Part shown: one piece after another, positions 1 to 48,285 of the stretch
Position numbering within the stretch: the first letter of the stretch is position 1
Layout of the letters: each line of letters starts with the position of its first letter
Source: an uncultured bacterium
Lineage (GTDB): Bacteria; Acidobacteriota; HRBIN11; JAKEFK01
Assembly (NCBI GenBank): GCA_963777505.1
Contig: CAVZQN010000008.1
Span: 1-64,000 of the forward strand
DNA length: 64,000 bases
Direction: 5' to 3'
Notes under the pieces: generated by a model
What the model was told of the DNA's origin: nothing
Databases searched by the model: none
The model's input: the letters and a program-made list of their open reading frames with translations, nothing else
Position numbers and translations under genes: made by a program

Positions 1-2108
1 TGCACGTGCGTAAGCGTATCCTAATGTTGAAAGTTCAATTGGACTCCCATTCGAGACTTCAACTGCCTTCAATGCCGATTCAATAGCCCGGGCATTCTGT
101 CCAAGAGCCAAGTATACATACACAGCTGTATTGAGAGTGGTTTCATATTCAGGAACAATCTCAAGAACTGAATTGATCTGGTTCAATGCACCCTTAAAAT
201 CTCGTGCACAATAAAGCGCAAATGCCATATCGTTCATTGACTTTACATCAAGTGGATTGATATCAAGCGCTTTTTTCACCTTTGCAATAGCTTCACCACC
301 CCGCCCTTGCGAAGAAAGCAGATATGAGTAAACACAATAGGCATCTGCGAAATTTGGATTTAGATCAATCGCCTGCTTAAACTGTTTCTCAGCACCAGCC
401 CAATTACGATCATAGAAGAATAAAACTGCACCCAACGCATTCTGTGCTTCAGCTAAATCACTTCGCAGACTGACGGCTTTCAATGCAGCCGTTTTGGACA
501 TCTGAAATGCAGAATCTGGAGGAAGCCAGCCATTTGTTGCCATCGATCCATATGCATCCGACAGACCAGCCCATGCTAAAGAATATTCAGGATCACTCTC
601 AATGGCTCGGTTGAAGTATTCAAGTGATTTCTTTTGATTTTCAGGCGTGAATTTTGTCCACAAATATCTTCCGCGCAAATAATGCTCATACGCTACCGGA
701 TTATTTGTGAGAGGTTTGACTTGCCGCGGTACATTGGTACCTTTTAGTTCTAATTTCAAGTTTTCAGAAATCTTATCGGATACACTCGCTTGAATTTTTA
801 TGATTTCGGAAATGCTTTGTTCGAATCGATATCTGTCCATAAAACGGATCCATCCTTTACGCTTACAAGTTCGGCTTGCACGATTACAGTGTCACCATTA
901 CGATCGATACTTCCTGAAGCAACCGCATCAACTTTCAATTCTTTACCGGCCTGACGTGGATCAATTTGCTTTCCTTTGTAGGAAAATACCGTCCCGGATG
1001 CCATAACTTTCAGATTCTCGATTCGCGAAATATCGCTAATAATCCTTTCAGTAATACCGTCGCTTAAATATTCCGTTTCTGGCTGGTTCGTCCGATTCGC
1101 AAAAGGAAGAATGGCTATTGAATGGATTTGTTCAGTGTTTGGACGGCGCAATAAGAATGTCAAAATCACTGCTAAACAAATCAACGTTAGAGCGCCAATC
1201 AGCATTTTTTTCTTAAGACTTTTGGAGATCGCATCAGTTTCATCAGGCAGTGAACGTAGATCATTCAACATTTCAACCGCATTTTCGTATCTCTTCTCGG
1301 GATCTTTTTGGAGTGAACGATGAATAATTTGTTCCAGCTTCAGTGGAACTCCTTTTATTGTGTCTCTGTTAAGAAGTGGCTCATCTTTTAAAATTTTTGC
1401 GGTAATTTCATTCGCGTTTTTTCCCCAAAATGGATGAATGCCTGTAGCACACTCATAAAGCAAAACGCCAACCGAAAAGATGTCACTTCGAGTGCTTGCA
1501 GTACCGCCGCGAATTTGCTCAGGCGCCATATATGGCAAAGTACCAACAAAAACATCACTGCGTGTTGACCATGATTCAGTAGGAATTTCGTTGCCAGAAG
1601 TTACCTCGGGCAGAGTTTCTACTTGCACAGTTTTTTTGATCTGAGCTAATCCGAAATCAAGAATTTTGATGTTGCCTTGATTCGTAATGAAAATATTTTC
1701 CGGTTTGAGATCACGATGAACAATCCCTTTCGAATGAGCGGCTGCTAATCCTTCTAATATAGAAAGAGCCACCTTTCCCAATTCGTCTTTTGAAAGGCTT
1801 CCGCCAGACAACTTTGATCGCAATGATTCACCATGAAGCAGTTCCATCACTACATAGGAAATATTATCGACAGATCCAATATCGTAAATGGCGAGAATAT
1901 TTTGATGGGAAAGGGCTGCCAGGGCTTTGGCTTCCCGTTCGAATCGAAGGATTGCATCGTAAGAACCAATGCGGGATTCGGTCAGAACTTTGATCGCGAC
2001 TTCGCGGTCAAGTCTGGTATCGCGGGCGATAAAAATCTCACCCATACCTCCCTTTGCAAGAAAGGAAACGATTTCGTAAGGACCTAACCTGGTTCCAGGC
2101 TGCAGCAT
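1..2108 (-). CDS. Ser/Thr protein kinase with TM helix, TolB-N-like domain and TPR repeats (frameshift near 830; runs off window edge)
   Basis: ORF 798..2108 has Hanks kinase motifs (GGMGEIF, VAIK, HRDLKPEN, DFGLA, APE), a TM segment and the SIAILPFAN...YLSDGITE module. Reading 1..~830 in another minus frame gives TPR-like text (AYEHYLRGRYLW...AWAGLSDAY...AIDLNPNFADAY). Confidence 0.9.
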
Positions 2109-2177
2109 AAATAGCTCATATATTGCAAATTGTACAATGCAAATTGCAAATTTCTTCGAGTCTCTGCGGTAAAAAAA

Positions 2178-3389
2178 TTAAGGCCGGTGAAAGACATTCG
2201 AAACTTGCTGGAGAAGGATGACTGGCACAGGCGATTCTGGATTATCAACTTTTAATGCGGCAAATTCTTGCTCCGCTTCCTTGAATAAACCTGCTTCAGC
2301 ATAAAGAATACCAAGCGCTAAGTGCGAATTCCCTACACTTGTTTTCGCTGCTTCAAGTTTTCTTGCAATAGGTGCGTCAAGGACCTTGAATTTAGCTTCT
2401 GGTGCGGGTGGCACGGGAGCTAAGATCTCCTTTCCGTTTAACGTTGCTGTTACCTGCCATGAATAAATCTTCCCGCGCATAAGAGGTGTCGAAGCGATCC
2501 ATGAAAGTCCAGTTAGTTCGATCGCTTCGCAGAACTTCTTGATACTTGGAATCATAGATCGCAATTCTGTACGACTTCGCATTTGGCAATGGACGCCAAT
2601 TGAATTCCGGTGTGTCGCTTAATACAACCGCTCCATATGGATGAATCGGTGCGAAGGAAGAATCATTGGAAGAACCAAGCAATTTCCCTTGTGGAGGTCG
2701 GAGTTCCGCAGCAATGGTTGGAATTTGGAGATGAAGAGATTGTAGACTTTTCTTTAAAGGATCTATCAAATCGCCAGCCGATGCGGGCAATCCATTTACG
2801 TTTCCATTTGCATCCATGACAATTTTCCTTTCTCCATCCTGCAATGCCAAAATAACCTCTGGTTGATTTACATGGCTTTTCGAAGTTCTGAAATTTCTGA
2901 TTGCGACTTGCGAAGCTCAGATTGCAAATGATCGATGTTTTTTTGAAGTGACCAAAACAAGACCATTCCCGCCGTTCCAATTACCGCAAATACTGCGGCT
3001 GCCTGCATCCACGTAAGGTTAAGACTACTTTTTGGTAAATGTGTGGCTTTTGCAACTACTTCTCGAGTTTGAACAAATTTTCTCAAATCTTTTTCTTCAG
3101 TCGCGCAAAGTTCACATTCTTCTAGATGTTTACGAAGTACGACTCCGCGGGCTTGATCTGTTTTCCCGTCGATCCATCGACTCAATTCTTGATACGAGAT
3201 ATGACGTGAAGGTGACTCAATTTGCCCGGTCAAATAGGTGACAGAGTTTCGAACATCGATAGCATCTGCTGTTTTCGTTCTGCATAATTCGCAGGATGAA
3301 AGATGATCGTCTGCGGCTAAAAGCATTTCAGGAGCTAATTGTCCCGTTGTATAGCCTTTGATTTCTTGATCTGTTAAGTGTTCTTTCAC
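2178..3389 (-). CDS. Anti-sigma factor: two zf-HC2 (HxxxCxxC) motifs, TM helix, coiled coil, DUF928-like extracytoplasmic domain (two frameshifts)
   Basis: Joined from ORFs 2868..3440 (HLSSCELC, HLEECELC, TM), 2392..2850 (PYGAVVLSDTPEFNW) and 2178..2582 (YSWQVTA...HLALGILYAEAGLF). GTG start at 3389 abuts the sigma stop. The DUF928 resemblance is from motif recall. Confidence 0.75.
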
Positions 3390-3390
3390 G

Positions 3391-4431
3391 CTAGTTTTTT
3401 TCCTTTGGATAATTATTTTTCGAACTGGACCGATCCGCATGCATACGCCGGCTTAGCCGCGCGCGAGCCGATTTACGGAAGTTAATCACCTCTTGCCTGG
3501 TAGCATTACAACGTTCTCCAATCGTCTTATCATCAAGTGGCAGCGAGGACCATAACTGAGCAAGGACATTTGCAGGAATTTCCAGCGCTTCACTGATGCC
3601 TCGTATGTTAACAACATTGAGGATCGGAAATAAGTAAAGAAGGCTTTTGCCCGCAGGATCCCTCAGGCTAAATAGCAGTGCAGTTCTCTGCAAAATAGGG
3701 AGAGCCAGAATCTCTTTCCAGAGCCGTTCTAGATAAGATTTCTGCTCCAATCTTTCCTGCTGATTTTTTGCAGGATGCGGAACAAACTCTAACAAGTGAC
3801 TGGAATCTTCTTCTTTTCGATCATTTCTTGCGGTACCGGATATTTCTGCAACGACAGTTACCAACTGATTCAATTCAATTCCTTTTCCATTCCCAAGAAA
3901 AACTGCATTCACGATCGCGCGAAGTTCCTGCCAGTCTGACGTACTCTTCTTTAATGCAAGATGTTCATTGCCTCGTAATTCATTTAAAATAGTTTCTGCA
4001 TTAGAAAAAACCGCATCAGGTTTGAACATCCATTGCTGAAATCCGCAGATCAGTCTTCCCCGACTGCTCTTCCTGATCGCAAAAGAATCATCATGAGTCA
4101 TCAGATATTTCAGCCTGCTTTTAAGCCGGCACCGTTCCGGATACATTTTCCGAAAGTAAAGATCACATGCATGTTGCGTAAGAACTCTTACATAAGCTTG
4201 AAAACTCCCGATCGCTTTCTTCGCTGGATTGTTCCTTAGATCCTGCAAACGCACCAGAAGTTGCATCAGGACATTACTCAGAATGTCATCCCTGTCTCGA
4301 TCTAAAAAGTCGCGTCTGTCTTTATAGAAGGAAGATAACCTGAACCGAATTACTTTTCGGGCAACAGGTTCGGCGTGAACTGACATCAATTTTTCCAACT
4401 CAATATCGCCAGAAGTTTTTGGAGAGTCCAA
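3391..4431 (-). CDS. ECF-type RNA polymerase sigma factor with a long insertion between regions 2 and 4
   Basis: Region 2-like DRDDILSNVLMQLL...FQAYVRVLTQHACDLYFRK; region 4-like LPILQRTALL and LPLDDKTIGE...TRQEVINFRKSARARL; directly upstream of a zf-HC2 anti-sigma. True start may be further upstream (ATG 4456 or 4483, out of frame). Confidence 0.75.
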   Translation of the reverse strand: MDSPKTSGDIELEKLMSVHAEPVARKVIRFRLSSFYKDRRDFLDRDRDDILSNVLMQLLVRLQDLRNNPAKKAIGSFQAYVRVLTQHACDLYFRKMYPERCRLKSRLKYLMTHDDSFAIRKSSRGRLICGFQQWMFKPDAVFSNAETILNELRGNEHLALKKSTSDWQELRAIVNAVFLGNGKGIELNQLVTVVAEISGTARNDRKEEDSSHLLEFVPHPAKNQQERLEQKSYLERLWKEILALPILQRTALLFSLRDPAGKSLLYLFPILNVVNIRGISEALEIPANVLAQLWSSLPLDDKTIGERCNATRQEVINFRKSARARLSRRMHADRSSSKNNYPKEKN

Positions 4432-4555
4432 AAAGGCTGGAGAGAATAGAATCCATCTCTGGCTGACGAGAATCTTTCTCCATGAACAACATTATATGCA
4501 ATGTTGTGTAACTACTTTTTGTACGTTGTGACTCGGAAAACATCGTCCTTATATA

Positions 4556-4587
4556 TAGAGAGAGAGAACAAAAGCCTTGTTATTACC
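4556..4587 (-). promoter_or_regulatory. Degenerate copy of the island promoter motif upstream of the sigma gene (putative autoregulatory ECF promoter)
   Basis: Minus strand reads GGTAATA-acaaggcttttgttct-CTCtctcTA-tatat-AAGGac. The -35 is identical to the five other copies, and the terminal TA and downstream AAGG are at matching spacing. Confidence 0.55.
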
Positions 4588-4621
4588 ACGAGCGAAGTCT
4601 CCAGGCCGTTATAATGGCAAT

Positions 4622-7575
4622 ATGGGCAAGATTATCCTCTTTATTATCCTAGTGTTCTTGTCTGTGAATGCGGGATTTGCAATAACTACACCTGAGCTGG
4701 CGAATGAGCTAGCAGCAAAAACCTCGGATGAAGAACGCAATCAATTGCTTGCACAAAACCCTGGTTTGATCAGTGCGGATCTTGCAAAAGAAATTCTAAC
4801 GCGAGGGGAGGAGAAACGAAGGCAAGGGGAATACGACTTTGCGGTATCCCTCTTTGATCTAGCTCGGCGGATTTCTGATCAAGCACATTATGAAGTTGGG
4901 ATTGCGTCTTCCTGGAATGCGACAGCACGCGCGAATCGGTCTCGTGGGAATTACAAAGAAGCCCTCGAACAATTCGAGCGGGCTATGGAAATCGGTAAGA
5001 AACTCAATGACAAACCGGTTCTTGCCGACAGTCTGGCGGGCATAGCGGCGTTAAAGAAGGAGAGAGGAGACATGAACGGAGCAATTTCTGGTTTCGAGCA
5101 AGCTCACTCTTATACGAAGAACTCGGAAACCAGAGTCGCGTTGCAGCGATGCTCACCAACATCGGAGTCGTGCTGACGGACAATGGTGAATACGAAGATG
5201 CCTTGCAGAGTCATCTAAAAAGCCTGGAAATCTTTGAAACCTTAAAAGATAAAGAAGGGATTGCTGCAGCTTCGATAAATCTCGGCGTGATTCACCATGA
5301 TCGGGGAGAAATCCAGCTGGCTATTGAAAAATATCGACGAGCTCTTGAGATTACTGAAGAACTTGGAAATGCTGCGGGTACTTCCTATGCGATGAATAAT
5401 CTTGGGCTCATTTACACAGTATCAGGGGATTATAAATCTGCGATCGAAACACTGCAGAAGAGCCTCGCTTTAAATGAACGCATAGGAAGTAAGAGTGGTA
5501 TTTCACAAGCCTACATGAATCTTGCCACGTGCTATTCATCGATGGGAGATTACGATTTGAGCCTCCACTATTTGGAGAAAGCACTCCCCATCAAGACAGA
5601 GATTGGTGATGCACGGGGTATCGCAATCATTCAAATGGAGCTGGGGGATGTTTTTCAAAGAAAAGGAGATTTGAAGAAAGCGGTTCAGTACTACGAAACG
5701 TCGCTTCAGCAGGCTCGCGGTTCTGGAAACTCCAGTATGAGCGGTGATGTCTTAATCAAGCTTTGCGCGTTTTCGGAACCAATGTACGGAATCGACAAAT
5801 CTTTGCAGTATTGCGAAGAAAGTTTAACCGAGAACCGAAATACAGGACAAACTCTTAACCTTGTTCAGGCACTTCAAGCAAAGGCATCGGTCCTGATGGA
5901 CCATGGAAAGTTTGATGACGCGCTGCCTCTTGCAAAAGAAGCTGTTTTCTTATCACAACAGCAGGGTTATTTGGAGGAATTGATTAGGACTCAAACTTTG
6001 ATGGGCGATTTTTATTTGGAGACAGGACGATTCGCTGAAGCGGAATCAGAATTTGATAAAGCCATCAAGGGAAATGAAGAAGTGCGCTTTGATATTCCAG
6101 GAGCTGAGAGGGAGAGTCAGTTGTTTTTTGAAGATCGACTTTCGCCTTACCATGGCATGGTTCAATTGATGCTTTCAGGCGAGAGATTGGATGAGGCTCT
6201 TCAATATGCGGAACGCGCACGCGCGCGAGCTCTTCTGGACGTGCTGCAAAGCGGACGAACAAAGATCGGAAAAAACATGACTCAAGAAGAGCTCAATGAA
6301 GAACAGGAATTGAGAAACCGGCTTGTTTCATTGAATCTGCGCATCCGTACGGAAAATCAAAAAGAAAAACCTGATCCGCAGGTTCTGAAAGAAACTCATG
6401 AACGGGCGTCAAAAGGTAGATTGGAATGGAACGCCTTCCGGGCAAAACTGTACGCAGCTCATCCGGAGTTGAAAATCAAAAGGGGTGAGTCACACGTTTC
6501 GCTTTCGTTTCCTGGTGAAGAATCGAAGGCCGCATATCTTGAATACTTTGTAACTGCAGATTCTACTTTTTTATTTGTTCTAAAAGATGGTAATCATGTA
6601 TCTGTTCATAAAATTCCTGGCGGAAGAAAATACTGGCGCAATCAATCCAATGAGTTTCGGAAAATGCTGGCCCGTCGCGATCTTGGGTTCCGAAAAAAAT
6701 CGATGGAACTTTATCAAACGCTGTTCAATCCAGCGTTGGTCGATCTTTCGGGCAAGACTGAATTGGTGATCGTGCCAGACTCCGGTCTTTGGGAAATCCC
6801 CTTCGCAGCGTTGTTGAATAATCGCGGAAAGTTTTTGATTGAGAATTTTTCAATCTCCTATGTTCCTTCACTGACCGTGTTGTCACAAATGAAGAAGATT
6901 CACACAAATCGGGAGACGGAAGAATTTTCTTTGTTTGCTGCTGGAAATCCACAGCATGGAAAGGTAAGCAGCGAGCGGCTGACTCAGGTTTTTGGAGGTG
7001 GAACTCTGGACCCACTTCCAGAAACAGAGCAAGAAGTTTTAGAGGTTGCCAAATTCTATGGCCGTGGTAGAAGTACGGTGCTAATTCGAGAACAAGCACG
7101 CGAAAACACTTTAAAGAAAGAAGCGGGAAATTTTGATGTAGTGCATATAGCTGCACATGGAATTTTAAACGACGCCAGTCCCATGTATTCTTTCATTCTT
7201 TTATCCGACGCTTCCGAAAACTTTCAAGACGGAATGCTTGAGGCATGGGAAATCATGGAGATGGATTGGAAAACCCGTGTGGCGATACTTTCCGCATGTG
7301 AAACAGGGCGAGGAAGAATTGCTCCCGGTGAAGGAGTCATTGGTCTATCGTGGGCACTTTTTGTTGCCGGAGTTCCTTCATCATTACTAAGTCTTTGGAA
7401 AGTAGATTCCGCAAGCACAACACAATTGATGCTGGAGTTTCATAAAAATCTTGCAGCTCAAAAAATCACTCCAGCCAGATCCGCTCAACAAGCCGCGCTG
7501 AAAGTCTTGCGCAGCGAAAATTATAGCCATCCATTTTTCTGGGCAGGCTTCGTATTGATTGGATATCCAGACTAA
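4622..7575 (+). CDS. Secreted TPR-CHAT (caspase-like, clan CD) protease 1 (frameshift near 5110-5150)
   Basis: Signal peptide MGKIILFIILVFLSVNAGFA; many TPRs across ORFs 4577..5176 and 5149..7575; CHAT catalytic motifs VVHIAAHG and LSACETG; C-terminal HPFFWAGFVLIG. Confidence 0.92.
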
Positions 7576-7595
7576 ACAAAACTATTCACTCGCTT

Positions 7596-8666
7596 TCAAA
7601 ACGCAGCATTGAGCAATCCTGGGTGTTGCATTATCTGTCTTATTGATGCGAGATATGCGAGCAAGGCAGGATTCGGTTCCGAGTTTGTGGGAAAATTCTG
7701 ACACATGTGCTTAAGGCTATTCAATTGTTGTATTATCGCATTGCACTTTGTAAAGTGAGCAGAATCAGCAATAGGAACACCCTTATCTTCTTGGCTTATT
7801 TCCTTCATCTTCGCTATCAGGACATCCAGCATCTGAACCATTTCCCCTACGGTTTCCGGAGTGCCGATGAGCGCATGGTAAAGGGCGGTTGTCAGGACAT
7901 CCGACATCTGAACCTCTTCCGGAGTGCCGTTGATCCCAGGGTCAAGCTGCGGGTTCATCTCTTTAAATTGAGGCCGGGCAAGCTGCACATTATGCAGATC
8001 CTTGGGTTCCTGGTCTGGTTTCGGACTATCTGCACGCGGCAGTGGGGATTGTTTTGAAGCGGGAAATCTTAATGCGTTGAAATCAAGCTGCTCGTGCAAC
8101 TGAAGCTGTTTTTCGATCGCATTCTCCATTCTGTATAACTTGCCGAAGGAATCGAGTGAGGCGACCATATCGTCCGCCTCCGCCGGCTTATTATCAATTG
8201 TGATAATCCCGTTTTCATCCAATCCGTCCAGACTCACATTTCCGCCCGGTTTGTCGTGTATGATTATCCCTTTCTGCGCCAAGCTTTGCGTAATTCTGTT
8301 ATTGGAGAATCCGAAGAGTGCATTTACGATTCGAAATCGCGGATCTTGTAGTTGCTGAAGCAAATCTTTCGCTGGCACCAAAAGACTTTGACCTTCTACG
8401 GCGTTCGATAATGATTTGAAGTATTCAGCAGGCCCTTCATACGATGCCGCTGGCCGAACGGCAGGCAAAAGTAAATTTGAAGTTCCTGCTTCGTTGATGT
8501 TTTCAAATTCGCTGCGATCAAAGCCGCCGAATAGTTTTAATGCTGTTTCAACTGTTTTCGAATCAGTCTTTACTGCTTCGGCTATACCTTCGGTCGCAGA
8601 ATTCGCCGCGCTTGTACCTACACTGCCAAGCGTCTGAAGAAGTTGTGCACGTTGTTCAATGATCAT
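7596..8666 (-). CDS. Hypothetical protein (putative chaperone cargo, motif-rich)
   Basis: 356-aa ORF whose ATG overlaps the stop of the upstream TPR gene (ATGA). Contains LLLPAVR, GIIIHDKP/GIITIDNKP and EMNPQLDP. No Sec signal peptide. Confidence 0.7.
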   Translation of the reverse strand: MIIEQRAQLLQTLGSVGTSAANSATEGIAEAVKTDSKTVETALKLFGGFDRSEFENINEAGTSNLLLPAVRPAASYEGPAEYFKSLSNAVEGQSLLVPAKDLLQQLQDPRFRIVNALFGFSNNRITQSLAQKGIIIHDKPGGNVSLDGLDENGIITIDNKPAEADDMVASLDSFGKLYRMENAIEKQLQLHEQLDFNALRFPASKQSPLPRADSPKPDQEPKDLHNVQLARPQFKEMNPQLDPGINGTPEEVQMSDVLTTALYHALIGTPETVGEMVQMLDVLIAKMKEISQEDKGVPIADSAHFTKCNAIIQQLNSLKHMCQNFPTNSEPNPALLAYLASIRQIMQHPGLLNAAF

Positions 8667-9140
8667 AAATCACCTCTCTTTTTTTCGATCGCATCCAGAG
8701 CCAGTAAAGTCAGCAGGCGCGCACGATTTGCAGCAGGGTGCTTTCGAGAAGAATCCAAATCCATTGACGCTTTGAAGTCTGAGGCTGCTTCTTGAAGTCT
8801 TCCTAATTTCAAAGCGATCTCGCCTCATTTGTCAAAGCATGAATGTCACTTGCATTCACGCGCAACGACGCATTGTAATGCTGGATAGCGGGTTCATACT
8901 TTTCTTGCTTTTGATAAATTGCTCCAAGCATTCCGTGTATGTAGGGATTCGCGCCATCCAGCACGGACATGCCCTCAAAGATATTCTTAGCCTCCTCCAA
9001 TTTGTTCTGTTCAAAAAGTGTGGCCGAGTCTTCAGAATCGCAGCCACATGTTTTGCATTGATGCGCAGTATTTGAGCTAACCTGACTTCTCCTGAAAGTT
9101 TTTCTAATTCAAGTTCCTTGATTGGCTGTTGATTTAACAT
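8663..9140 (-). CDS. SycD/LcrH-like TPR chaperone (two frameshifts)
   Basis: ATG 9140 with GGAGG SD. Joined frames give MLNQQPIKELELEKLSGEVRLAQILRI...EEAKNIFEGMSVLDGANPYIHGMLGAIYQKQ...ALTN..GEIALKLG...HPAANRARLL...KRGDL*. Confidence 0.65.
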
Positions 9141-9182
9141 TTCGGCCTCCAAGCTTCCATCGATTTTCATTTTCTTCACTGA

Positions 9183-9214
9183 TATTGGAGGGATGAGGTG
9201 GGTGGCATATTACC
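9183..9214 (-). promoter_or_regulatory. Island promoter motif copy driving the chaperone/cargo operon
   Basis: Minus strand GGTAATA-tgccacccacctcatcc(17)-CTCCAATA-tcagtgaag. Confidence 0.7.
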
Positions 9215-9285
9215 AGCCTGCTGGAATTTCAAAAAAATCTTGCGCTTAGACTAGTACCATCTTGTAGTTTATTTTTTTTGCGGCT

Positions 9286-9316
9286 GGTAATACGTAATTT
9301 TTTCGTCTCTCAAGTA
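9286..9316 (+). promoter_or_regulatory. Island promoter motif copy driving the small EYGGP ORF
   Basis: GGTAATA-cgtaattttttcgtct(16)-CTCAAGTA-attgtgaaatggc. Confidence 0.7.
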
Positions 9317-9389
9317 ATTGTGAAATGGCAAACATTACTTTCGGAGTTTGCACATGAACCAAATAAAACAAGGAGAGAGCAAAACAAGA

Positions 9390-9479
9390 ATGGATGTAAA
9401 AAAACAAACTGAATATGGCGGACCTGATTCAACAGAAGTTCAGAAGAACCTGAGGAGAATATTCATGAGAAACCTGTAG
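9390..9479 (+). CDS. Small ORF MDVKKQTEYGGPDSTEVQKNLRRIFMRNL (paralog or remnant of the 15729 ORF; possible in-frame ATG at 9354)
   Basis: Hand translation. AAGGAG upstream. DNA and protein similarity to the 5' end of 15729..16049. Confidence 0.5.
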   Translation: MDVKKQTEYGGPDSTEVQKNLRRIFMRNL

Positions 9480-9569
9480 CAGTCGTGTGTTCTCGTGTTC
9501 ATGCTAATTGCCGGCTCATGGGGAACGATCGATCCCATGGCCCACATGCAAAACGGTTGCGTGGACTAA
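9465..9569 (+). pseudogene. Remnant of a secreted-protein gene: signal peptide only, with in-frame TAG
   Basis: MRNL*QSCVLVFMLIAGSWGTIDPMAH aligns with the 12560 gene N-terminus MRFNSKAVFVFTLIAGLWGAIDTMAQ; GAGGAG SD present. Confidence 0.65.
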
Positions 9570-9609
9570 TCAAGCAATTGTGGCAACTGATTCAATTCGC
9601 TACTTTCGT

Positions 9610-12344
9610 CTACATTCCATTGCCAATCAAGACGAACGCTGCCCAAAAGAATGGATGTCGATAATGATCTTGCTTGTATACTTGTAGTGCAGCGCTACGT
9701 AAAGCTTCCGCTTTCGATTCGGACTTCAATTTCTCGTGAAACGTCAGCATAAATTCCGTAGTGCTTGCCGAATCTACCTTCCACTGGCTTACTACCGCGG
9801 TAGAAGTACCCGCTACAAAAAATGCCCATGACAGACCGATCATCCCTTCACCTTGACCCACTTTTCCAAGCGCGCTTTCGCAGGAGGACAATACAACGAG
9901 ATCTGCATTCAAGTTCATATTTAGAATCTCGCGCGCTTCCAGCAAACCATCTTCTTCCTCCCCGGTTCCTGTTTGTGCAAGAACGATCTGAGAATACATA
10001 GGTGACGAATCGTTCAGAAGGCTGTGAGTCGCCAAATGCAAAATGCGAAATTGGCTCGCTTCTGTTTTAAATCGGCTTTCCTGGAGCATCCGCCCGAATG
10101 TAAATTTTACTCTGTTGGTTCCCATAAAGTCGTCCCAGTGTTTTTGCCTCTTTCTCAGCTTCCGGAAGAGGACTTAGATTGCTATCCCTAAAGATGGATT
10201 TCAATTGATCCAGAGTGTTCTTTCCCAGGGCAGGATTTCCGAACGCGAGCAGATTCATCGGCTTAGAAATCATCTGTTTTTTCTCCAGATTCATCATTTC
10301 CTTTAGGACGGTCAGTGAGGGAACAAAACTCACGGTTGTCTCTTGCAGCAAATATCGATTCCCTGGCGTAATCAATGCCTGAAAGGGAAGTTCCCAAAGC
10401 AAGTCATCGGGAACGATAACCAGTTTTGTTATCCGTTTCAATTCTTGAGCCGCCGGACGAATTAAAGTATTGTATAGCTCTGCCGCCGGGATTCGGAATC
10501 CCAGATCACGATTCGCGATTTTCTCACGGAAGTCTCTAATTTTGTTTGAAACTGTTTCTCGCTGAACGCGAATTTTGTGCACAGAAACCGCGTTTTCTCT
10601 GGTAAGAACGAACAAGAAAGTTGCCTCCTCAGTGACTACGTATTCAAGAAAGGCGGTTTGAGAATCCGGCAAAAAATCGATTGCGGTTTTGGCGAATAAT
10701 GGCGAAGTTTCGCCGCGTTTGACTTTGAGTTCGGGATGCGCAGCATAGAGTTGTGCACGGCCGCTTCCCACTTGAGACGCGTCTTTTGCAATTTCTCGCT
10801 GAGGCTTGTGAGCAATACCTGATCGGAATTGGTATTTGAAGAAGCACGTTGAATCTCTTTATTAATAGATACCAGTTCCTGATTTAACTTTTTGCTCCGC
10901 AGTTGTTCCTGGGAAGAGAGGGAACCTGAAATCTCGACCTTCCCGCTGCGAAGGACATCGAGAAGTACTCGTGCCTTAGCGCGTTCAGAGTATTCCAGGG
11001 CCTGGGTGGTAAGATTCTGATTGATTAAAAGGCTGATCATTTCATGATAAGGAGATAGTTTTTCTGCGAAAAGGCTCTGCTGTTCCAATTCTGCGCCGGC
11101 AACAAGGTATCGCCAGTCCTCAATTGTGGCAATTGCTTCTTCAAAATTCTGTCGGGCTTTATCCGGCTGCTGCAATGCAGAGTATGCTTTTCCCCTCGCT
11201 TCCAAGCCTGTCCAAAGCAATTGTCGATCGCCGATTTTACGCGCAGTCAGGACGGCAAGTTCGGCGTATTCCAGGGATTTTTCGTAGTTTCCCTTCATGA
11301 AGTATGCGTTTGCGAGAGCTTTTGACTGCTTGCTTCAACCTCCGAATAGCCTAATTTTTTGGTCAGCGGCATACATTTCAAACCGTACTTCAGAGTGCGT
11401 TCCGCATCACCTTTTTTAAGATAGATATTTCCGATGTTAATCAATGCGCGCGCGCGACGAGACGTTGGTCTCCTAATTCTTCAGCCAGAGCTAAGCTTCT
11501 GTTGTTGTATTCAAGCGCCAAGTCATAGTCTCCCAGCAGGCGATAATCTCCCATGTTACTCATGACATTTGCGATATTGGCTTTATCCCCTAGTTCTTCG
11601 CGAATTTTCAAGCTTTTGCGATATAACTCAAGCGCATGTGCATAGTTACCTTGTGAATCGTGGATAATCGCTATGTTATTCAGGCTATCGGCGATTAGGC
11701 GTTGATTACCGATTTCATTTCTTAATGCCAGACCTTTCTCAAGATAGCCCAACGCAACTCGAAAGTTTCCCTGGTGCATGTAAAGCTGATCCGATGTTGC
11801 TTAAGTTTGACGCAATATGTCCATTGTCCTGGAGTGCTTCGCCGATCGCAAGACTTGCTTGATAAGCCTCGAGAGACTTGTCGATGTTACCTAGATGGAA
11901 TTCTGAAACACCTATGCTTCGTAAGGTGCTTGCTTTCAGACTCTCGTCTTCGATTTGCTCTGCAATGGCTAAAGTTTGTTTGAAATAATCTAGTGCTAGA
12001 TTCGAGTCGCCCTGGTCAGAACGACGATGCAATCAGCGGATTGCGTGCGCCACTCCTGCTTTATCGCCTAGTTGCGTCGACACGTTTTGTGTCAATTTAG
12101 AAAACTTCCAGCGCCTTTGAGAATTCACCATAAATTAGTAGTTGTTCCCCTTCAATGATCAAAGCTTTTCGCAGCTCTACTGTTAACAAGATTTTGTTGG
12201 TAGCCAACAATTGATTTCGTTCCTGTTCCTATTTCGTTTTTATTAGCGAGATGGCCATTCTTTTTCTAGCGAATTTTTTTCCTGAGCAGAGGCTGGAATT
12301 AGAAAGAGTAAGAATAGAAGAATGAGAGGAAGGACAAATCTCAT
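9610..12344 (-). CDS. Secreted TPR-CHAT protease 2 (about six frameshifts; assembly error or pseudogene)
   Basis: ATG 12344 with signal peptide MRFVLPLILLFLLFLIPASA. TPR fragments 11739..12032, 11441..11779 and 10636..11298. CHAT fragments 10067..10771 and 9610..10125 (ILHLATHS, LSSCESA, HPFFWAAFVLIG). Clear paralog of 4622..7575. Confidence 0.85.
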
Positions 12345-12456
12345 TTGACCTCTTTTCCCTTCGCAAGCGGGAGAGTGATAACAAAACCAATTATACAAAA
12401 TTCTTGCATTTACGGGTTTCAGACAACTCTTCAGTCTGTCCAGTATTTTTATGATT

Positions 12457-12488
12457 GGTAATATCCACACCATCTCATCTCTCCAATA
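12457..12488 (+). promoter_or_regulatory. Island promoter motif copy
   Basis: GGTAATA-tccacaccatctcatct(17)-CTCCAATA-acattgaaggc. Confidence 0.72.
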
Positions 12489-12559
12489 ACATTGAAGGCG
12501 GAACATCTTTTTGGGAGTTCGCTGGTTCTATCAAAATGACGAAGAAAGGAGGGTTAAAA

Positions 12560-13109
12560 ATGAGATTCAATTCAAAAGCGGTTTTCGTTTTCACGTTGAT
12601 TGCTGGCTTATGGGGAGCGATCGATACCATGGCCCAACCCATTGAATGTTCCAGTTCAGTGCAAAAGGTCACAGCGGTGACGGACCCAGCGGGTCACGTA
12701 ATCACCACGAAGTTTCAACTCGATGTCCCGAATCTTCAGACCTTGCTCACAACGACAATCAACACGAGACGAGGTTGTCTTGTAGTGCACTTGAGCGGGT
12801 TGGCCAGGATTACGGATAATTACATCGTCTTCCAGGTTCGTGTGGATGGGGTTCCGATGCAAGGCCATCTTAGTAGTGCTTGCAGGGGTCAACACTCCTG
12901 CGGTCTTTGTCTCGATTGACGCGTTAAGTGACTTTCCATGGAATGACGAGCAATTCATTGATCCGACGAAGGTGGTCGCCTACAATTTCTTTAACGCAGT
13001 GGAACGAGGCAACCACACCGTCGAGGTGTTGGCCGCTGCAGGCAGTGGCATTGATTCCCTCAACCCCCCTCGAGTGGACAATCTAGTGCTGACGCTTGAA
13101 TATCGTTAG
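12560..13109 (+). CDS. Secreted hypothetical beta-rich protein (one frameshift near 12870-12890)
   Basis: AAGGAGG SD and signal peptide. ORFs 12455..12919 and 12840..13109 join into one coherent protein ending LVLTLEYR. Confidence 0.65.
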
Positions 13110-13118
13110 GGGGCCAAT

Positions 13119-14429
13119 ATGCGAGCTGTAATTGCACGATGCCTGATAGTTATTCTCACCTGCCTTGCCGGTGAGGTAGATGCCCAGGAAAATCAGTTAT
13201 CAACGATCATTTGGGCCGGAGGACTCATCGATGGGACCGGAAAGACGGTTCGAAAAGACGTTATCATCGTGATACGGGATGAACGAATCGTCGAGATACG
13301 AAACGCCAACACCGGTGAAATTCCCCAAGCGGCTGACGCCACCGTTTTGGATCTCCGTAATTCTTCGTTCTCCCGGGACTGATCGACGTACATGCACACA
13401 TCACCCAGAGCCACGATCCAAAGCTCGACTACGGAGGGCTCTCGGCGGCGTCGTGCGGCATCCTCGGCGTAGTTCACGCAAAGCGCACCCTTATGGCCGG
13501 ATTCACCACAGTGCGGGATCCCGCCGGTCCGTATTATGCCGACGTCGCTGTGCGGGATGCAATCAACGCCGGTTTGATTGAAGGGCCGCGGATGTTCGTG
13601 AGTGGTCCAGTCATCACGATGACGGGAGGGCACGGCGCGGTCGGAAACTGGGCGCCGCCAGGAGTGGAGGTCCGGACCGGCGCGATGTCGGTGGCGGATG
13701 GTGTCGACGAAGTCCAACGTGAAGTACGCATCCATCAGAAGTACGGCGTCGATTTCATCAAAATCATCGCGACAGGTGGCATATTTACGGCCCGTTCCGA
13801 TCCAGGCGCGGCCTCATACACTCAGGAAGAAATTGAAGCGGCGGTCGACGAGGCTCGGAAACGAGGTCAGCGAGTTGCGGCGCATGCGCACGGCCTTGAA
13901 GGCATCCGCAATGCGGTGCTGGCTGGAGTTCATTCGATCGAGCACGGAAGTTTTTTGGATGCCGCAACCGCGAAGCTCATGGTCGAACGCGGCACGTACC
14001 TGGTACCGGATGTCGTATGCGGACGAGTACACGCTGATGTCCGGGGAAGAGCTCGGCCTCGATCCTGAAATGCTAAAGGCTCGCGCGGTTAGCACCCGGT
14101 TTCGTGAAAGCGCAACGCTGGCTTACAAAGCCGGAGTCAAGATCGCGTTCGGGAGCGACGCCGGCGTTTATCCCCACGGGGAGAACTCGAAGCAATTTGC
14201 GTTATATGTCGCATTCGGAATGTCGCCGATGGAAGCGATCACGACCGCTACGCGAAACGCCGCGGATCTTATCGGAAGCGGCGACATTGGAACTATCGAG
14301 GTCGGAAATTACGCAGATCTTATTGCCGTCCCGAGCAATCCGCTCGATGACATTCGTGTGCTAGAGACCATCCCATTTGTCATGAAGGGCGGACGCGTTG
14401 TGAAAAATGAGACGTCTGCGCTCCCTTAA
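13119..14429 (+). CDS. Secreted metal-dependent amidohydrolase (Xaa-Pro dipeptidase-like), two frameshifts
   Basis: Signal peptide; DVHAH near 13386; GFTTVRD, FIKII, AHAHG, SIEHG, FGSDAG and ADLIAV motifs across ORFs 13119, 13493 and 13698. Confidence 0.85.
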
Positions 14430-14464
14430 AACAAATTTCTCTGGATCATCTTCCTAATTGCTCT

Positions 14465-14496
14465 GGTAATATGTCCACCCGTTCCTTTCTCCAGTA
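14465..14496 (+). promoter_or_regulatory. Island promoter motif copy
   Basis: GGTAATA-tgtccacccgttccttt(17)-CTCCAGTA-attgtgaaggc. Confidence 0.72.
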
Positions 14497-14533
14497 ATTG
14501 TGAAGGCCGAACATCCTTCCAAGGAGTAAAGAA

Positions 14534-15608
14534 ATGAATACTATTCGATTCTTCACAATTACCATTTTGATACTTGCAACAATTGCTATAGGTTCCACCG
14601 AAGCCACTGACTACATTATTAGTTTTACGGATGGTTCCAACCGTGTTGGGTACTTCGTACTGAAAGCTAATGGAGCTAGTATCAAAGCTTCTCCACCGGT
14701 ATTTACTACAGGTACCGCGGCGATCGGCACAACAACTCCGTATAAACTGAACAACGACGTTCTGATCCATCATACTTTTCGATTTGGCACGAGTGGTGCA
14801 CCAACCTACGGTGTCGCAGTGTTTGATTTCCCGAATGGAAAGCTGAAACAGAAGTTGTCATTTCAGAATTTCAACATTTATGACTTCTATCCTTTGAGAG
14901 TTTATGGTGCTCAGAACGGAAGCACGCCTCGAACCATGTACGCTAAGACTCAAAACGACATCAGTTCCGCACTGTTGAAGGCAGATGGAACTCCTGCAGG
15001 CGGAAAGAAGCCGATTTTTAATAATGCCGGCTGCGTCCGATATCGTGTTTGGTGCAGATGTATCCAAAGATGGAAACTGGGCTGTTCAAGCCATGTCTAC
15101 ATTGCAAGGCTTTACTCGTTTAAACCAGTTCCAGATCAGGCGTATTTCAAACGGAGGCGGAACCGGATCAGCTGGCCATTATAACGATTCCTGTCCCTCC
15201 ATATACTCCGAGCCTCTCGGGACCTATTGCATCATCCGGCGGCGTATTTCGCTGGCTTGGATTCCGAATTTTCGGAATCGGCACCTCAAGTCAACAAAGT
15301 GCGGTATTCATCGGAAAGATTGACAATGCGACAGGCAGGCACATTGGTCAACCCAAGCAAGTAACGAATCTTGCTCGAGCCTCGAGAGATCCGCAGAAAG
15401 TTTCCCTTCAGTTGTAGTTGCTCCTGATGGAAATTTTGTTATTTATACTGCTTACAGTACTTCCTGTAGAAAGCAAATTCTATTACTGCAAAGAATCAAC
15501 CCTCAAACCGGCAATAAGATCGAAGGAAAGAAAACTCTGATCGGTTGCAATCAACTTACGAATATTGTGATCGGGCTCTACGGAATTGACTTAGCGCGGA
15601 TCGGATAA
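14534..15608 (+). CDS. Secreted protein with TolB/PD40-like beta-propeller motifs (several frameshifts)
   Basis: Signal peptide MNTIRFFTITILILATIAIGSTEA; later frames give VSKDGNWAV and VAPDGNFVIY...GIDLARIG* (stop 15606-15608). Confidence 0.55.
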
Positions 15609-15631
15609 TTTCAAATCATTCTTGCTGAATT

Positions 15632-15663
15632 GGTAATATGCCCGCCGTCTTGTCTCTCAAGTA
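15632..15663 (+). promoter_or_regulatory. Island promoter motif copy
   Basis: GGTAATA-tgcccgccgtcttgtct(17)-CTCAAGTA-actgtgatggc. Confidence 0.72.
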
Positions 15664-15728
15664 ACTGTGATGGCGAATGTCCCTTTGGAAGTTCGGCACG
15701 TTGAAACAAATTAGAAGGAGAAACGAAA

Positions 15729-16049
15729 ATGAAAATCATGGCAAGAAACCAGATTGAATATGGAGGACCTAATTCAGCAGATGTTCCCGATACCAAAACA
15801 CCGAATGAGATTTCTGCAATGGGTCCGCTGGGAATTGGAGTAGGAGAGCTACAAAAGAAGCTAGGAATTGGAGGTACTAAAGACTCTTTTGCGACGGGTA
15901 GGAGTATCACGGACGGAACCAGCCGTCTAATTCAACAAGGGATCATACTGCAAAAGGATAAGGATGTGGCATTCGCAGATGGAAGCGTAAAGGTTAGTAA
16001 TGATCTGCAGAACGATCTTCAGAACATCAAAAAAGGAGAATTAAAATGA
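15729..16049 (+). CDS. Small motif-mosaic protein (EYGGP leader; GIGVGELQ, SITDGTS, GIILQ, VAFADGSVK)
   Basis: 106-aa ORF with AAGGAG SD; stop overlaps the next ATG (ATGA). Confidence 0.7.
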   Translation: MKIMARNQIEYGGPNSADVPDTKTPNEISAMGPLGIGVGELQKKLGIGGTKDSFATGRSITDGTSRLIQQGIILQKDKDVAFADGSVKVSNDLQNDLQNIKKGELK

Positions 16050-16627
16050 AGTTCAAACTATTTTGTCTATCAATTTTGTTCTTGATCAGTGCAGGTACGA
16101 TTTGCTCTGCAGACAATACTCACATGGAAGTCGAACCTGCCAACTTTGTCACATTAGAATGGCACTGCGACGCAACCCAATTGGGAAGCTGCAGGTTTAT
16201 GAGATCTTCACCCGATGGCAGTAATCAAGGAGGTTTCATTATCCCTGATCGTTCGGTTTTTGTAGTAACAGAATTTGAGTGGAAATATAAATTGGGACCA
16301 TTTCCGTTGATCGGTTTTGAAACTGATCTTCTCTTTTTTGAATTACAAAGAGTAGGCGGACCTGGTCAGATCAATTCGCCCGCAACATCGAACGAGTCAA
16401 CAAAAAACCTAAACTGTGGCGAAAATCTGTTTTGCGCAGTGGCAGTTGGGGGCGAGCAAATGACGACGGGATTTGTCGTGGCGCAAGGTGCGCATCTTTC
16501 ACCTCTTGTAGAATCTCTAGCTACAGGTTTGCCACTGAGCCGTGACTCGGAGTTTTTACAAGTTAGAATCCGCGGCTATTTGGTGGCTCCATCTTGCGGT
16601 TCCCTGGTTTTCATCCGTGCCCTGTAA
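16046..16627 (+). CDS. Secreted hypothetical protein
   Basis: 193-aa ORF; signal peptide MKFKLFCLSILFLISAGTICSA; AAGGAG SD. Confidence 0.7.
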   Translation: MKFKLFCLSILFLISAGTICSADNTHMEVEPANFVTLEWHCDATQLGSCRFMRSSPDGSNQGGFIIPDRSVFVVTEFEWKYKLGPFPLIGFETDLLFFELQRVGGPGQINSPATSNESTKNLNCGENLFCAVAVGGEQMTTGFVVAQGAHLSPLVESLATGLPLSRDSEFLQVRIRGYLVAPSCGSLVFIRAL

Positions 16628-16653
16628 GATAGGAAAACGATTTTCGACTAAAA

Positions 16654-16688
16654 GAAGGCCAGATAGTTACGCGATCTGTCTGGCCTTC
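16654..16688 (+). terminator. Hairpin terminator closing the cassette series
   Basis: GAAGGCCAGATAG...CTGTCTGGCCTTC stem just after the 16627 stop. Confidence 0.55.
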
Positions 16689-16714
16689 CACTGTTGATCT
16701 TCAGAAACGTTTTC

Positions 16715-16768
16715 TTAACTCTGCGTACTCGGCGTTAAAAAAGCCATCACCAAAAATTAAGGCCGGGC
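16715..16768 (+). repeat. ~54-bp direct repeat, copy 1 (copy 2 at 18277-18330)
   Basis: ttaactctgcgtactcggcgttaaaaaagccatcaccaaaaattaaggccgggc versus ttgactcggcgtactcggcgttaaaaaagcttcaccaaaaaattaaggccgggc. Confidence 0.8.
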
Positions 16769-18276: not shown

Positions 18277-18348
18277 TTGACTCGGCGTACTCGGCGTTAA
18301 AAAAGCTTCACCAAAAAATTAAGGCCGGGCAGCGGACGCTACCCGGCC
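18277..18348. repeat. Direct repeat copy 2, overlapping the terminator hairpin of the radical SAM gene
   Basis: GGCCGGG...CCCGGCC hairpin followed on the minus strand by a U-tract. Confidence 0.7.
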
Positions 18349-33158: not shown

Positions 33159-34007
33159 TCACTCCTTCGAAACTGCTTCGGAATTCCAAATTTCATTTGC
33201 GAGATCTGAGATCAGCTTGTAGCCATCTTCTTCCTTCTTTACCCCACGTGTCATGATCACCATGATCCAGCGATTTCCTTTTTTATCTTGAATGATTGCA
33301 GAATCATGATTGATTTCAGTAATCCATCCATCTTTACTTGCGACTTTTAATCCTTTCTCTTTTGCCTTCAGTCCATTATGAATTCCGGCAAGTGATGTCT
33401 GCGATAACAGAATATTGATCATTTGATTGCGCGATGTGTCTTTGAAAATCTTGGGATCCAAGATTGCTTTATAGCACATTCCAAGAGCTCGGGCGGAAGT
33501 TCGATTGTTTTTACCGGCTTCATACGCTTTTATATCTTCTACACCGCGAAGAACCAGCATATCCTTTGCGCCAATTTCTTCCATCAGTTTATTAACGTTT
33601 TCTGGCTTCACAATTGAAATCACAATATTTGTTGCAAGATTGCTGCTCTTATTAATCATTCTCACTATCAAATCCCGCACGGTCATTGGCTGGCCAATGA
33701 GATTGTAAATTTCTTTATCGCTATCTTCTTCGGGTGTCAGGGAATAAGGTGAACCATCCTGAATACTTATGAACTCATTTTTTATTGTCACCGAAGCATC
33801 AAGGCTCAGTTCATTTTTTTCTGACTGTCTGAATGCTTCCATCATGACAGGCACTTTCATAGTGCTGGCAGCATGGAAAACTTCATCAGCATTATGTTGA
33901 AAGACACTCCCGTCAGGACGTTCAAAATAGATACCGATTGATTGCGCTCCGTATTGCTGTGGAAGCGCGCTCAACCACAAAGCAACAAACAGTAAGAATA
34001 TTTTCAT
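33159..34007 (-). CDS. Serine hydrolase, class A beta-lactamase-like fold
   Basis: Signal peptide; STMK, SSN and KDG (variant of KTG). Confidence 0.8.
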   Translation of the reverse strand: MKIFLLFVALWLSALPQQYGAQSIGIYFERPDGSVFQHNADEVFHAASTMKVPVMMEAFRQSEKNELSLDASVTIKNEFISIQDGSPYSLTPEEDSDKEIYNLIGQPMTVRDLIVRMINKSSNLATNIVISIVKPENVNKLMEEIGAKDMLVLRGVEDIKAYEAGKNNRTSARALGMCYKAILDPKIFKDTSRNQMINILLSQTSLAGIHNGLKAKEKGLKVASKDGWITEINHDSAIIQDKKGNRWIMVIMTRGVKKEEDGYKLISDLANEIWNSEAVSKE

Positions 34008-36745: not shown

Positions 36746-36779
36746 AATTTTTTACCACAAAGGCTCAGAGTCTCGGCGG

Positions 36780-48148: not shown

Positions 48149-48160
48149 GAGATGATTATA

Positions 48161-48261
48161 GTTTGTATTAAAGGTACGCAGTTCGTACGCATTTATGCGG
48201 ACAAACAGTACCGTGAGTCTCCACGGCACTGCCTCGCATTCGCTGGCGTGCCTAACTACAA
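48161..48261. repeat. MITE/REP-like composite element (related copies 53544-53639 and 60306-60516)
   Basis: Shared arms TTTGT..TAAGG(C/T)AC.CAG and ACGGCACTGCCTCGCATTCGCT..GCGTGCCT.ACTACAA. Confidence 0.7.
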
Positions 48262-48285
48262 TCCAGCATGCTATACAATCGCCCC

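Follow-up and report, generated by a model that had tools for sequence, protein, structure and literature searches.

An extracytoplasmic function (ECF)-like sigma factor, a membrane-spanning anti-sigma factor and an exported TPR-CHAT protease are encoded side by side near the start of the 64,000-nucleotide stretch analysed here (the window), which makes up the opening 64 kb of contig C8 in the assembly of an uncultured bacterium of the Acidobacteriota (GCA_963777505.1; 5,227,869 bases in 14 contigs). The trio is a conserved module of soil Acidobacteriota and is probably an uncharacterised envelope signalling pathway. We regard it as evenly poised whether the module works as a split periplasmic site-1 protease system, in which the CHAT protease would cut a loop of the anti-sigma factor and an RseP-type step would then lead to release of the sigma factor. 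A preliminary description of the window, made from its letters and open reading frames (ORFs), had proposed a signalling island independent of clustered regularly interspaced short palindromic repeats (CRISPR) and composed of a sigma, anti-sigma and kinase operon, two exported TPR-CHAT proteases and a local regulon. What it observed is confirmed in part: the genes and the promoter-like motif are real, but frameshifts interrupt the genes, and the kinase is an incidental neighbour. Its interpretation is partly supported and is generalised here to a conserved three-gene module with a testable predicted contact.

Conservation of the three-gene neighbourhood

A scan of one genome per species returned 259 loci with a relative of the sigma gene, and the best 80 of these were analysed together with flanks of up to 10 kb. 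Acidobacteriota is the label of 78 of the 80 loci, and the lineages represented include the Pyrinomonadaceae, Blastocatellia, Thermoanaerobaculia, Bryobacterales and Vicinamibacteria. Based on tblastn, the anti-sigma gene directly follows the sigma gene in 75 out of 80 loci and a close relative of the CHAT domain of the window is found in 58 (E 1e-12 to 1e-107); in 55 loci the CHAT ORF lies no more than 800 nt from the sigma/anti-sigma pair. The co-occurrence of sigma homologs with anti-sigma and CHAT genes, for which the preliminary description had proposed a survey of this kind, is thus borne out. CHAT was missing from 22 loci, of which 11 break off under 1.6 kb past the anti-sigma gene and 11 have room for a further gene. 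The commonest orientation of the CHAT gene is convergent, directly after the anti-sigma gene, and some loci have all three genes on one strand in the order CHAT, sigma, anti-sigma. In most of the Thermoanaerobaculia loci that have CHAT, the genes also lie on one strand but in the order sigma, anti-sigma, CHAT.

The trio stands out from its surroundings. When 901 ORFs were clustered all-against-all, the sigma family was present in 70 loci, the anti-sigma family in 68 and the CHAT family in 54, followed by a family present in nine, and the flanks are almost free of further CHAT hits beyond the adjacent copies. The genome that holds the window contains approximately 10 CHAT loci in 5.2 Mb, from which chance adjacency is estimated at about 1-2%. 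No cas family was identified among the families common to the related loci (only three are widely shared) or among the Pfam hits of the window, in agreement with the proposed independence from CRISPR. A kinase gene, which the preliminary description had counted as part of the system, occurs within 10 kb in 6 out of 80 loci and is never adjacent, and 119 high-scoring segment pairs to kinases were found in the window's own genome; the kinase is therefore placed outside the conserved module. All three genes of the proposed sigma/anti-sigma/kinase operon are present in the window, but the gap between the anti-sigma and kinase genes holds a repeat element, so that membership of the kinase in one operon with the other two is not demonstrated.

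Many genomes carry several paralogous copies of the module, with or without the CHAT gene (L013, L038; L010/L012/L044, L022/L023, L005/L080), sometimes two within 21 kb. In the window's own genome, a second sigma copy on contig C5 is 38% identical to the window sigma and is followed by an intact anti-sigma gene (437 aa). The C5 island (L003:2795-11900) has no CHAT or kinase gene within 10 kb of this intact pair. Its other products are an exported amidohydrolase, whose gene is intact, a 490-aa protein that belongs to no known family and a small TPR protein; on C5 and C7, genes for a small TPR protein are repeatedly paired with genes for a large protein of unknown kind. Contig C14 (L084:1-6004) carries an intact TPR-CHAT gene (2326..5391, TTG start, signal-peptide-like N-terminus, PF12770 1.2e-70) followed directly by an anti-sigma gene (902..2203) that encodes an intact 434-aa paralog, and it also holds a histidine-kinase fragment (62..850).

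Architecture of the three proteins and their predicted contact

The product of the sigma gene is an ECF-like sigma factor, judging from its predicted fold. The window protein has no Pfam hit at E<=0.01 and its best NCBIfam match reaches only E 0.033. A word-index search found 10 relatives, two of which are labelled by JGI as sigma-70 or sigma-24 family. An exhaustive profile search of clusters at 50% identity matched 2,808 representatives (E<=0.001), 1,614 of them with E<=1e-30, indicating that the family is large. The AlphaFold model (mean predicted local distance difference test, pLDDT, 77) was compared with 48,161 PDB chains, and ECF sigma factors dominate the top of the list (ShbA, Z 8.7; SigK, Z 8.4). 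Z values near 8 are middling for helical proteins; the assignment was accepted because the matches concentrate on two domains, sigma2 and sigma4. Residues 1-100 of the model resemble sigma2 of SigR (Z 8.4, root mean square deviation (rmsd) 2.6, 78/78 residues) and of SigC (Z 8.3, rmsd 2.3), and residues 228-335, taken as the helix-turn-helix domain sigma4, resemble region 4 of E. coli sigmaE on DNA (Z 8.2, rmsd 2.1, 69/69) and region 4 of SigC (Z 7.1, rmsd 1.6). By sequence the resemblance is weak: Pfam Sigma70_r2 was detected in 5 out of 11 members (best E 0.0015, the window protein not among them) and Sigma70_r4_2 in only two out of 11 (best E 0.019), and the family sequence profile gave nothing significant against the PDB. 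Foldseek with the model gave no match at E<=0.001 (top rows sigma28 and SigB at 0.03-0.04).

The atypical character that the preliminary description had assigned to the sigma factor is apparent from the model. Sigma2 and sigma4 are separated by approximately 120 residues (105-225) with strands of their own (a beta-hairpin) and helices, and sigma4 also bears an insert. As canonical ECF factors consist of sigma2 and sigma4 with only a short linker, the protein is named ECF-like here. The insert domain shows a weak match (E 0.09) to the N-terminal domain of the RNA polymerase delta subunit.

The anti-sigma factor consists of tandem zf-HC2 (zinc-binding anti-sigma, ZAS) domains, a transmembrane helix, a periplasmic loop, an FN3-like domain and a TPR-like hairpin. 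The double zf-HC2 reading of the preliminary description holds: Pfam recognises zf-HC2 at 6.4e-7, and two HxxxCxxC motifs (H33/C37/C40 and H98/C102/C105) are invariant in 43 aligned relatives. Against the PDB, the anti-sigma profile matches ChrR (3.6e-5), RslA (3.2e-4), the N-terminus of DdvA (8rlz_A, 4e-4; 8rot_B, 6.8e-4) and RsiW (0.008). The structural model (pLDDT 88) consists of two helical bundles and a long helix (135-202, transmembrane plus coiled coil), followed by a small alpha/beta unit, a loop of lower confidence, the FN3-like sandwich (Z 9-10, rmsd 2.0-2.6) and the TPR-like hairpin. The loop carries a GxL(M/L/R)G pattern in which L268 is present in 40/43 sequences and G270 in 37/43, with M (23), L (10) or R (10) between them at position 269; in the broken anti-sigma gene of the window it reads GKLLG. 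By a crude pattern match, the loop is found in 49/58 anti-sigma factors with CHAT and 5/8 without, and it does not discriminate between them.

Export of the proteases, as proposed earlier for both TPR-CHAT proteins of the window, is supported by signal-peptide-like N-termini (MGKIILFIILVFLSVNAGFA in TPR-CHAT1 and MRFVLPLILLFLLFLIPASA in TPR-CHAT2), and 39 out of 46 near-full-length CHAT ORFs of the related loci start likewise in a crude hydropathy test. The catalytic histidine (H873) is invariant and the cysteine (C920) is at least 90% conserved in 38 CHAT sequences, which argues for retained catalysis. The CHAT domain alone matched nothing among PDB sequences at E<1, and TPR proteins crowded the results when the full CHAT profile was used. 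A gene for an RseP-like Peptidase_M50 is present (7e-62).

The contact between protease and anti-sigma outer domain was modelled with the intact C14 pair (CHAT residues 260-1022 and anti-sigma residues 203-434). The complex scored 0.67 (runs 0.67, 0.67 and 0.64) and the best of three controls scored 0.00, which supports the binding that the preliminary description had suggested should be modelled. A score of 0.67 was reached by 58 out of 80 solved complexes and 2 out of 110 mismatched pairs, counts that give only a rough calibration because own alignments were used in the present model. The runs have at least 86% of contacts in common and the pLDDT of the partner is at least 82. In the model, strands of the FN3 domain pair with CHAT residues 710-717 and 999-1005, and anti-sigma residues 260-273 are predicted to lie against A871, H873, S918 and A919, next to the catalytic C920. 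Since solved structures exist for craspase with its substrate and for DdvA, some memory effect in the model is possible; the FN3-bearing partner has no counterpart in either of them.

Layout, promoter-like motif and integrity of the island

The module of the window lies in an island that precedes intact housekeeping genes (carbamoyl-phosphate synthase, cytochrome b, SelB, ThiG and an aminoacyl-tRNA synthetase) from 17 kb onward. Its features are collected in the table.

Features of the island at the start of the window (strand as given; pieces are ORF fragments of one gene)
Feature	Position	Strand	Evidence or remark
Ser/Thr kinase-TM-TPR gene (TM, transmembrane)	1..2108	-	Pkinase 5.6e-52 and TPR hits (Pfam); runs off the contig start
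Kinase-TPR ORF pieces	798..2108 and 1..840	-	frameshift near 830
Anti-sigma gene	2178..3440	-	zf-HC2 6.4e-7 (Pfam); ORFs 2868..3440, 2392..2850, 2178..2582
ECF-like sigma gene	3391..4492	-	ORF 3391..4431 from TTG 4431, 346 aa; N-terminal stretch from ATG 4492
Motif copy, sigma gene	4562..4588	-	TGGTAATA-N13-TCTCTC, ~70 nt before ATG 4492
TPR-CHAT1	4622..7575	+	CHAT (PF12770) 1.3e-70; signal-peptide-like start; divergent from sigma
Motif-driven unit (putative)	7596..9179	-	small TPR protein and 356-aa protein of unknown family
Small TPR protein	8856..9179 plus 8809..9000	-	frameshifted
356-aa protein	7596..8666	-	no family assigned
Motif copy	9188..9215	-	pattern search
Motif copy (9285-9311), leader and truncated paralog of the 12456 unit	9285..9600	+	promoter, leader, signal-peptide part
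TPR-CHAT2	9610..12347	-	CHAT hits on two pieces (Pfam); signal-peptide-like start; no motif upstream
Motif copy (12456-12483), exported protein (2 pieces) and amidohydrolase (3 pieces)	12456..14429	+
Exported protein of the 12456 unit	12560..13109	+	2 pieces
Amidohydrolase of the 12456 unit	13119..14429	+	3 pieces
Motif copy (14464-14491) and exported protein in 2 pieces	14464..15323	+
Motif copy (15631-15658) and two small genes	15631..16627	+	both genes intact
Small genes of the 15631 unit	15729..16049 and 16046..16627	+	second with signal-peptide-like start

The motif TGGTAATA-N13/14-T[CT][CT]CTC has six matches in the whole genome of 5,227,869 bases, all of them at 4.5-15.7 kb of the window (first bases 4588 and 9215 on the reverse strand and 9285, 12456, 14464 and 15631 on the forward strand), while the octamer TGGTAATA alone occurs 70 times. 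As the preliminary description had claimed, the motif precedes every non-CHAT unit in 7.6-16.6 kb (5/5 units); together with its restriction to the island, this supports a local regulon. Two boxes at a fixed gap are the geometry of ECF-type promoters. The sixth copy lies upstream of the sigma gene, a position that fits autoregulation, and neither CHAT gene has the motif upstream. Four of the copies have approximately 45 nt of leader in common, in which RNAalifold predicted no conserved structure (0 pairs). A comparison of the regions preceding 78 sigma orthologs yielded no promoter word common to them, the best 6-mer being present in 19/78 and none resembling the motif of the window, and the repeats of the C5 paralog locus contain no comparable motif. 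Scans for sigma-70 promoters and terminators performed no better than shuffles (21 vs 22.4 and 22 vs 17.9), and these signals were rejected.

TPR-CHAT2 lies between the 12456 unit and a truncated duplicate of it, the 9285 unit. The promoter, leader and signal-peptide part are duplicated in direct orientation (9262-9600 and 12434-12640) on either side of the broken gene, which suggests that TPR-CHAT2 arrived or was rearranged through duplication or recombination. The G+C content is 0.51 across 12001-14000, which covers the broken amidohydrolase gene, against approximately 0.44 around it, and this amidohydrolase is only about 30% identical to other copies in the genome; together these suggest a possible foreign origin. 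The small TPR protein has paralogs elsewhere in the genome. For the 356-aa protein, scans with Pfam, NCBIfam and PADLOC found no family and an atlas search gave low recognition and no usable lead. PADLOC matched its generic TPR model alone and no defence-system family. An intergenic repeat of about 54 nt, which may be a repetitive extragenic palindromic (REP)-like or terminator-associated element, is present at 16715-16768 and 18277-18330 (85% identity between copies, ending in AAAAATTAAGGCCGGGC), with partial copies at 2172-2190 and 7965-7980, so that one short copy lies between the anti-sigma and kinase genes. Further along the window (34004-38256 and 46271-48373), and unrelated to the module, a molybdopterin oxidoreductase with Fe-S and NrfD-like partners lies near a SelB gene and may for that reason be a selenoprotein.

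The genes of the island had been described as whole, but no large gene is a single open frame. Compared with intact paralogs, the anti-sigma gene is read in frames -1/-3/-1 and TPR-CHAT2 in frames -1/-2/-3/-2/-3 (at least five segments). TPR-CHAT1 passes from frame 2 to frame 1 near 5100-5150 when compared with the intact C14 CHAT, and comparison with homolog P0002 places the conserved N-terminal part of the sigma gene (ATG 4492) in a different frame from the ORF that begins at TTG 4431. Counted by gene, there is one disruption in the sigma N-terminus, two in the anti-sigma gene, one in the kinase gene, one in TPR-CHAT1 and at least four in TPR-CHAT2. Two explanations were considered, a decayed, non-functional pseudogene copy and an intact island with assembly indels at the contig end; we lean towards decay almost, though not quite, as readily as against it. 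Decay would account for the concentration of at least 12 disruptions within 1-15.2 kb, against intact housekeeping genes at 17-64 kb. It would likewise account for the low long-ORF cover of the first 15 kb of C8, which fall into the bottom 3.5% among 342 windows of the genome; the assembly as a whole is not riddled with errors, 85% of it lying under open frames of at least 200 aa. The absence of the sigma gene from a genome of the same genus is likewise as expected for a dispensable island. Against decay, every disruption placed in the island is a frame change or indel and no in-frame stop was seen, the pieces are still 37-59% identical to an intact paralog, and the catalytic residues are retained. 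Furthermore, 9 out of 20 contig ends have a long-ORF cover of 0.75 or less, the median for the genome being 0.86. This hints that contig ends are prone to error, although the pattern could also arise if contigs break at decaying islands.

A putative split site-1 protease pathway and its relation to known systems

The following sequence of events is proposed. At rest, the anti-sigma factor would hold the sigma factor at the membrane. In the periplasm, the CHAT protease would dock on the FN3 domain and take the GxL(M/L/R)G loop into its His-Cys site, and a ligand sensed by the TPR array would activate the protease so that cutting of the loop becomes the site-1 step. Trimming, with cytoplasmic proteases also finishing the process, and an RseP-type site-2 protease would free the sigma factor, which would then read the six local TGGTAATA-N13/14-TYYCTC promoters and thereby its own operon and five units that encode mostly small exported proteins. 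Stated in full, the stand-alone exported TPR-CHAT protein would be the dedicated site-1 protease of a tandem-ZAS anti-sigma factor, cutting GxL(M/L/R)G to release an insert-bearing ECF-like sigma factor, throughout the Acidobacteriota and often in several paralogous copies per genome; this fuller statement is held tentatively, a shade short of an even balance.

Several observations weigh against this pathway. Eleven loci lack CHAT even though they have room for it (L015, L032, L038, L039, L051, L053, L058, L072, L073, L074, L081), the sigma/anti-sigma pair on C5 of the window's own genome has no CHAT gene, and no sigma gene lies between or beside the CHAT and anti-sigma genes of C14, a contig of only 6 kb. 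The module is patchy, the sigma gene being present in only 5 out of 41 genomes (the window's own, which is one of the five, and 40 relatives) and absent from the same-genus genome mentioned above. The trio and most output genes of the window carry frameshifts, so that this copy may be dead or mis-assembled. The score of the complex expresses the model's own confidence only, and the link between promoter and sigma factor rests on one island because the 78 orthologs have no upstream word in common. Finally, after a cut at approximately residue 268 the stub left in the periplasm would be long and would require further trimming.

The same data were weighed under alternative roles for the protease. 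ECF regulons often include adjacent genes, and CHAT might be a mere conserved target or neighbour of the sigma factor, an output instead of an input, with no contact to the anti-sigma factor. This is highly improbable given that six other units have the motif and neither CHAT gene of the window does, that the complex model passes while all controls score 0.00, and that CHAT is mostly convergent with the sigma operon and hence not co-transcribed with it. Adjacency and the binding model fit equally well with a non-proteolytic co-sensor, modelled on the action of RseB on RseA, in which the TPR-CHAT protein, as a ligand-sensing partner whose CHAT domain serves only for binding, attaches to the anti-sigma outer domain and modulates the access of a different site-1 protease; the long TPR arrays would suit such a function, but the conservation of the catalytic His and Cys across the 38 sequences speaks for an active enzyme and makes a co-sensor quite unlikely. 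Somewhat less unlikely, though still improbable, is that the loop serves as a pseudosubstrate or tether that inhibits the exported protease and keeps it membrane-bound, the real substrates being other envelope or foreign proteins and sigma release being a by-product or the work of another protease. The complex model displays occupancy of the active site and not cleavage, the C14 CHAT and anti-sigma genes have no adjoining sigma gene, and separase is controlled by an inhibitor, securin (PMC11506125). However, the sigma gene is the most constant partner, paired with the anti-sigma gene in 75/80 loci, and the L-(M/L/R)-G loop resembles the P1 preference of craspases for M or L (PMC11506125).

If the TPR-CHAT protein is indeed a site-1 protease for the anti-sigma factor, the module would represent a large family of envelope sensors that has gone unrecognised in a phylum dominant in soil, and would add a signalling pathway to the Acidobacteriota, whose regulation has barely been studied. 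It would be a free-standing counterpart of two systems compared below, the fused DdvA and the cytoplasmic craspase-Csx30-sigma axis. A separate protease and substrate are easier to reconstitute, the docking surface is predicted and the loop is a candidate for the scissile site, and the idea of a caspase as site-1 protease thereby becomes directly testable. Natural variants are plentiful, with the 1,614 cluster representatives that match the sigma profile, and a reporter could readily be built on the promoter motif, which is unique to the island in this genome. In the main texts searched, only the papers on DdvA and craspase proved relevant and none describes the acidobacterial trio; the supplements of the ECF reclassification (PMC7826278) and of PMC11506125 may bear on this group.

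To our knowledge, TPR-CHAT proteases have so far been linked to sigma control in two settings, the RNA-guided craspase and the fused DdvA. The general scheme is that of classical regulated intramembrane proteolysis of anti-sigma factors, as in RseA/DegS/RseP and RsiW/PrsW/RasP. The acidobacterial module would share with it the periplasmic site-1 cut, the site-2 metalloprotease, for which the RseP-like gene is a candidate, and the release of the sigma factor; it would differ in that the site-1 cut is made by a cysteine protease of the caspase family that carries a TPR sensor array and is encoded beside its substrate.

In the type III-E craspase, Csx29 (a TPR-CHAT protein) is reported to cut Csx30, which holds CASP-sigma, and the complex is said to be cytoplasmic, RNA-guided and bound to Cas7-11. 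The acidobacterial protease, by contrast, has a signal-peptide-like start and a transmembrane ZAS anti-sigma factor as its proposed target. The Pfam hits of the window and the families shared by the loci give no sign of an association with Cas7-11/gRAMP, and the CHAT N-termini speak against a cytoplasmic location. What the two have in common is a TPR-CHAT protein that acts (as proposed here for the Acidobacteriota) on the holder of an ECF-type sigma factor; moreover, craspases cut after M or L (PMC11506125), which resembles the L-(M/L/R)-G loop. The preliminary description had cited craspase as its precedent, and the logic is indeed shared, but it left out the closest precedent, DdvA-DdvS (PMC11506125).

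Among known systems, DdvA-DdvS of Myxococcus xanthus comes closest, and the acidobacterial module is a split form of it in another phylum. According to PMC11506125, DdvA is a transmembrane zinc-binding anti-sigma factor with a periplasmic TPR-CHAT region that is proposed, not shown, to cleave itself ahead of RseP; its authors term it the only characterised anti-sigma factor with TPR-CHAT and report DdvA-like proteins from Myxococcota and a single Comamonas only. The cleavage step of DdvA is still unproven for want of a known signal. Measured against that account, both systems combine an ECF-type sigma factor with a single-pass anti-sigma factor that has an N-terminal zinc-binding domain, and in both a periplasmic TPR-CHAT with a His-Cys dyad is the proposed site-1 protease before RseP. 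In DdvA the TPR-CHAT region is fused to the anti-sigma factor and would cut in trans within a dimer, whereas the acidobacterial TPR-CHAT is a separate exported protein: CHAT and anti-sigma are separate genes in all 58 CHAT-bearing loci, and a search for longer anti-sigma relatives, which is weak evidence, found no fused form. Unlike DdvA, the acidobacterial anti-sigma factor has two ZAS domains and an outer domain of its own composed of FN3 and TPR-like parts, and unlike DdvS the sigma factor carries the insert of approximately 120 residues and has no Pfam match. No regulon of CRISPR or of cyclic oligonucleotide-based antiphage signalling systems (CBASS) was seen with the acidobacterial module, which in these respects differs from DdvA-DdvS as described there and instead appears to pair a free-standing exported protease with its own membrane-bound anti-sigma factor.

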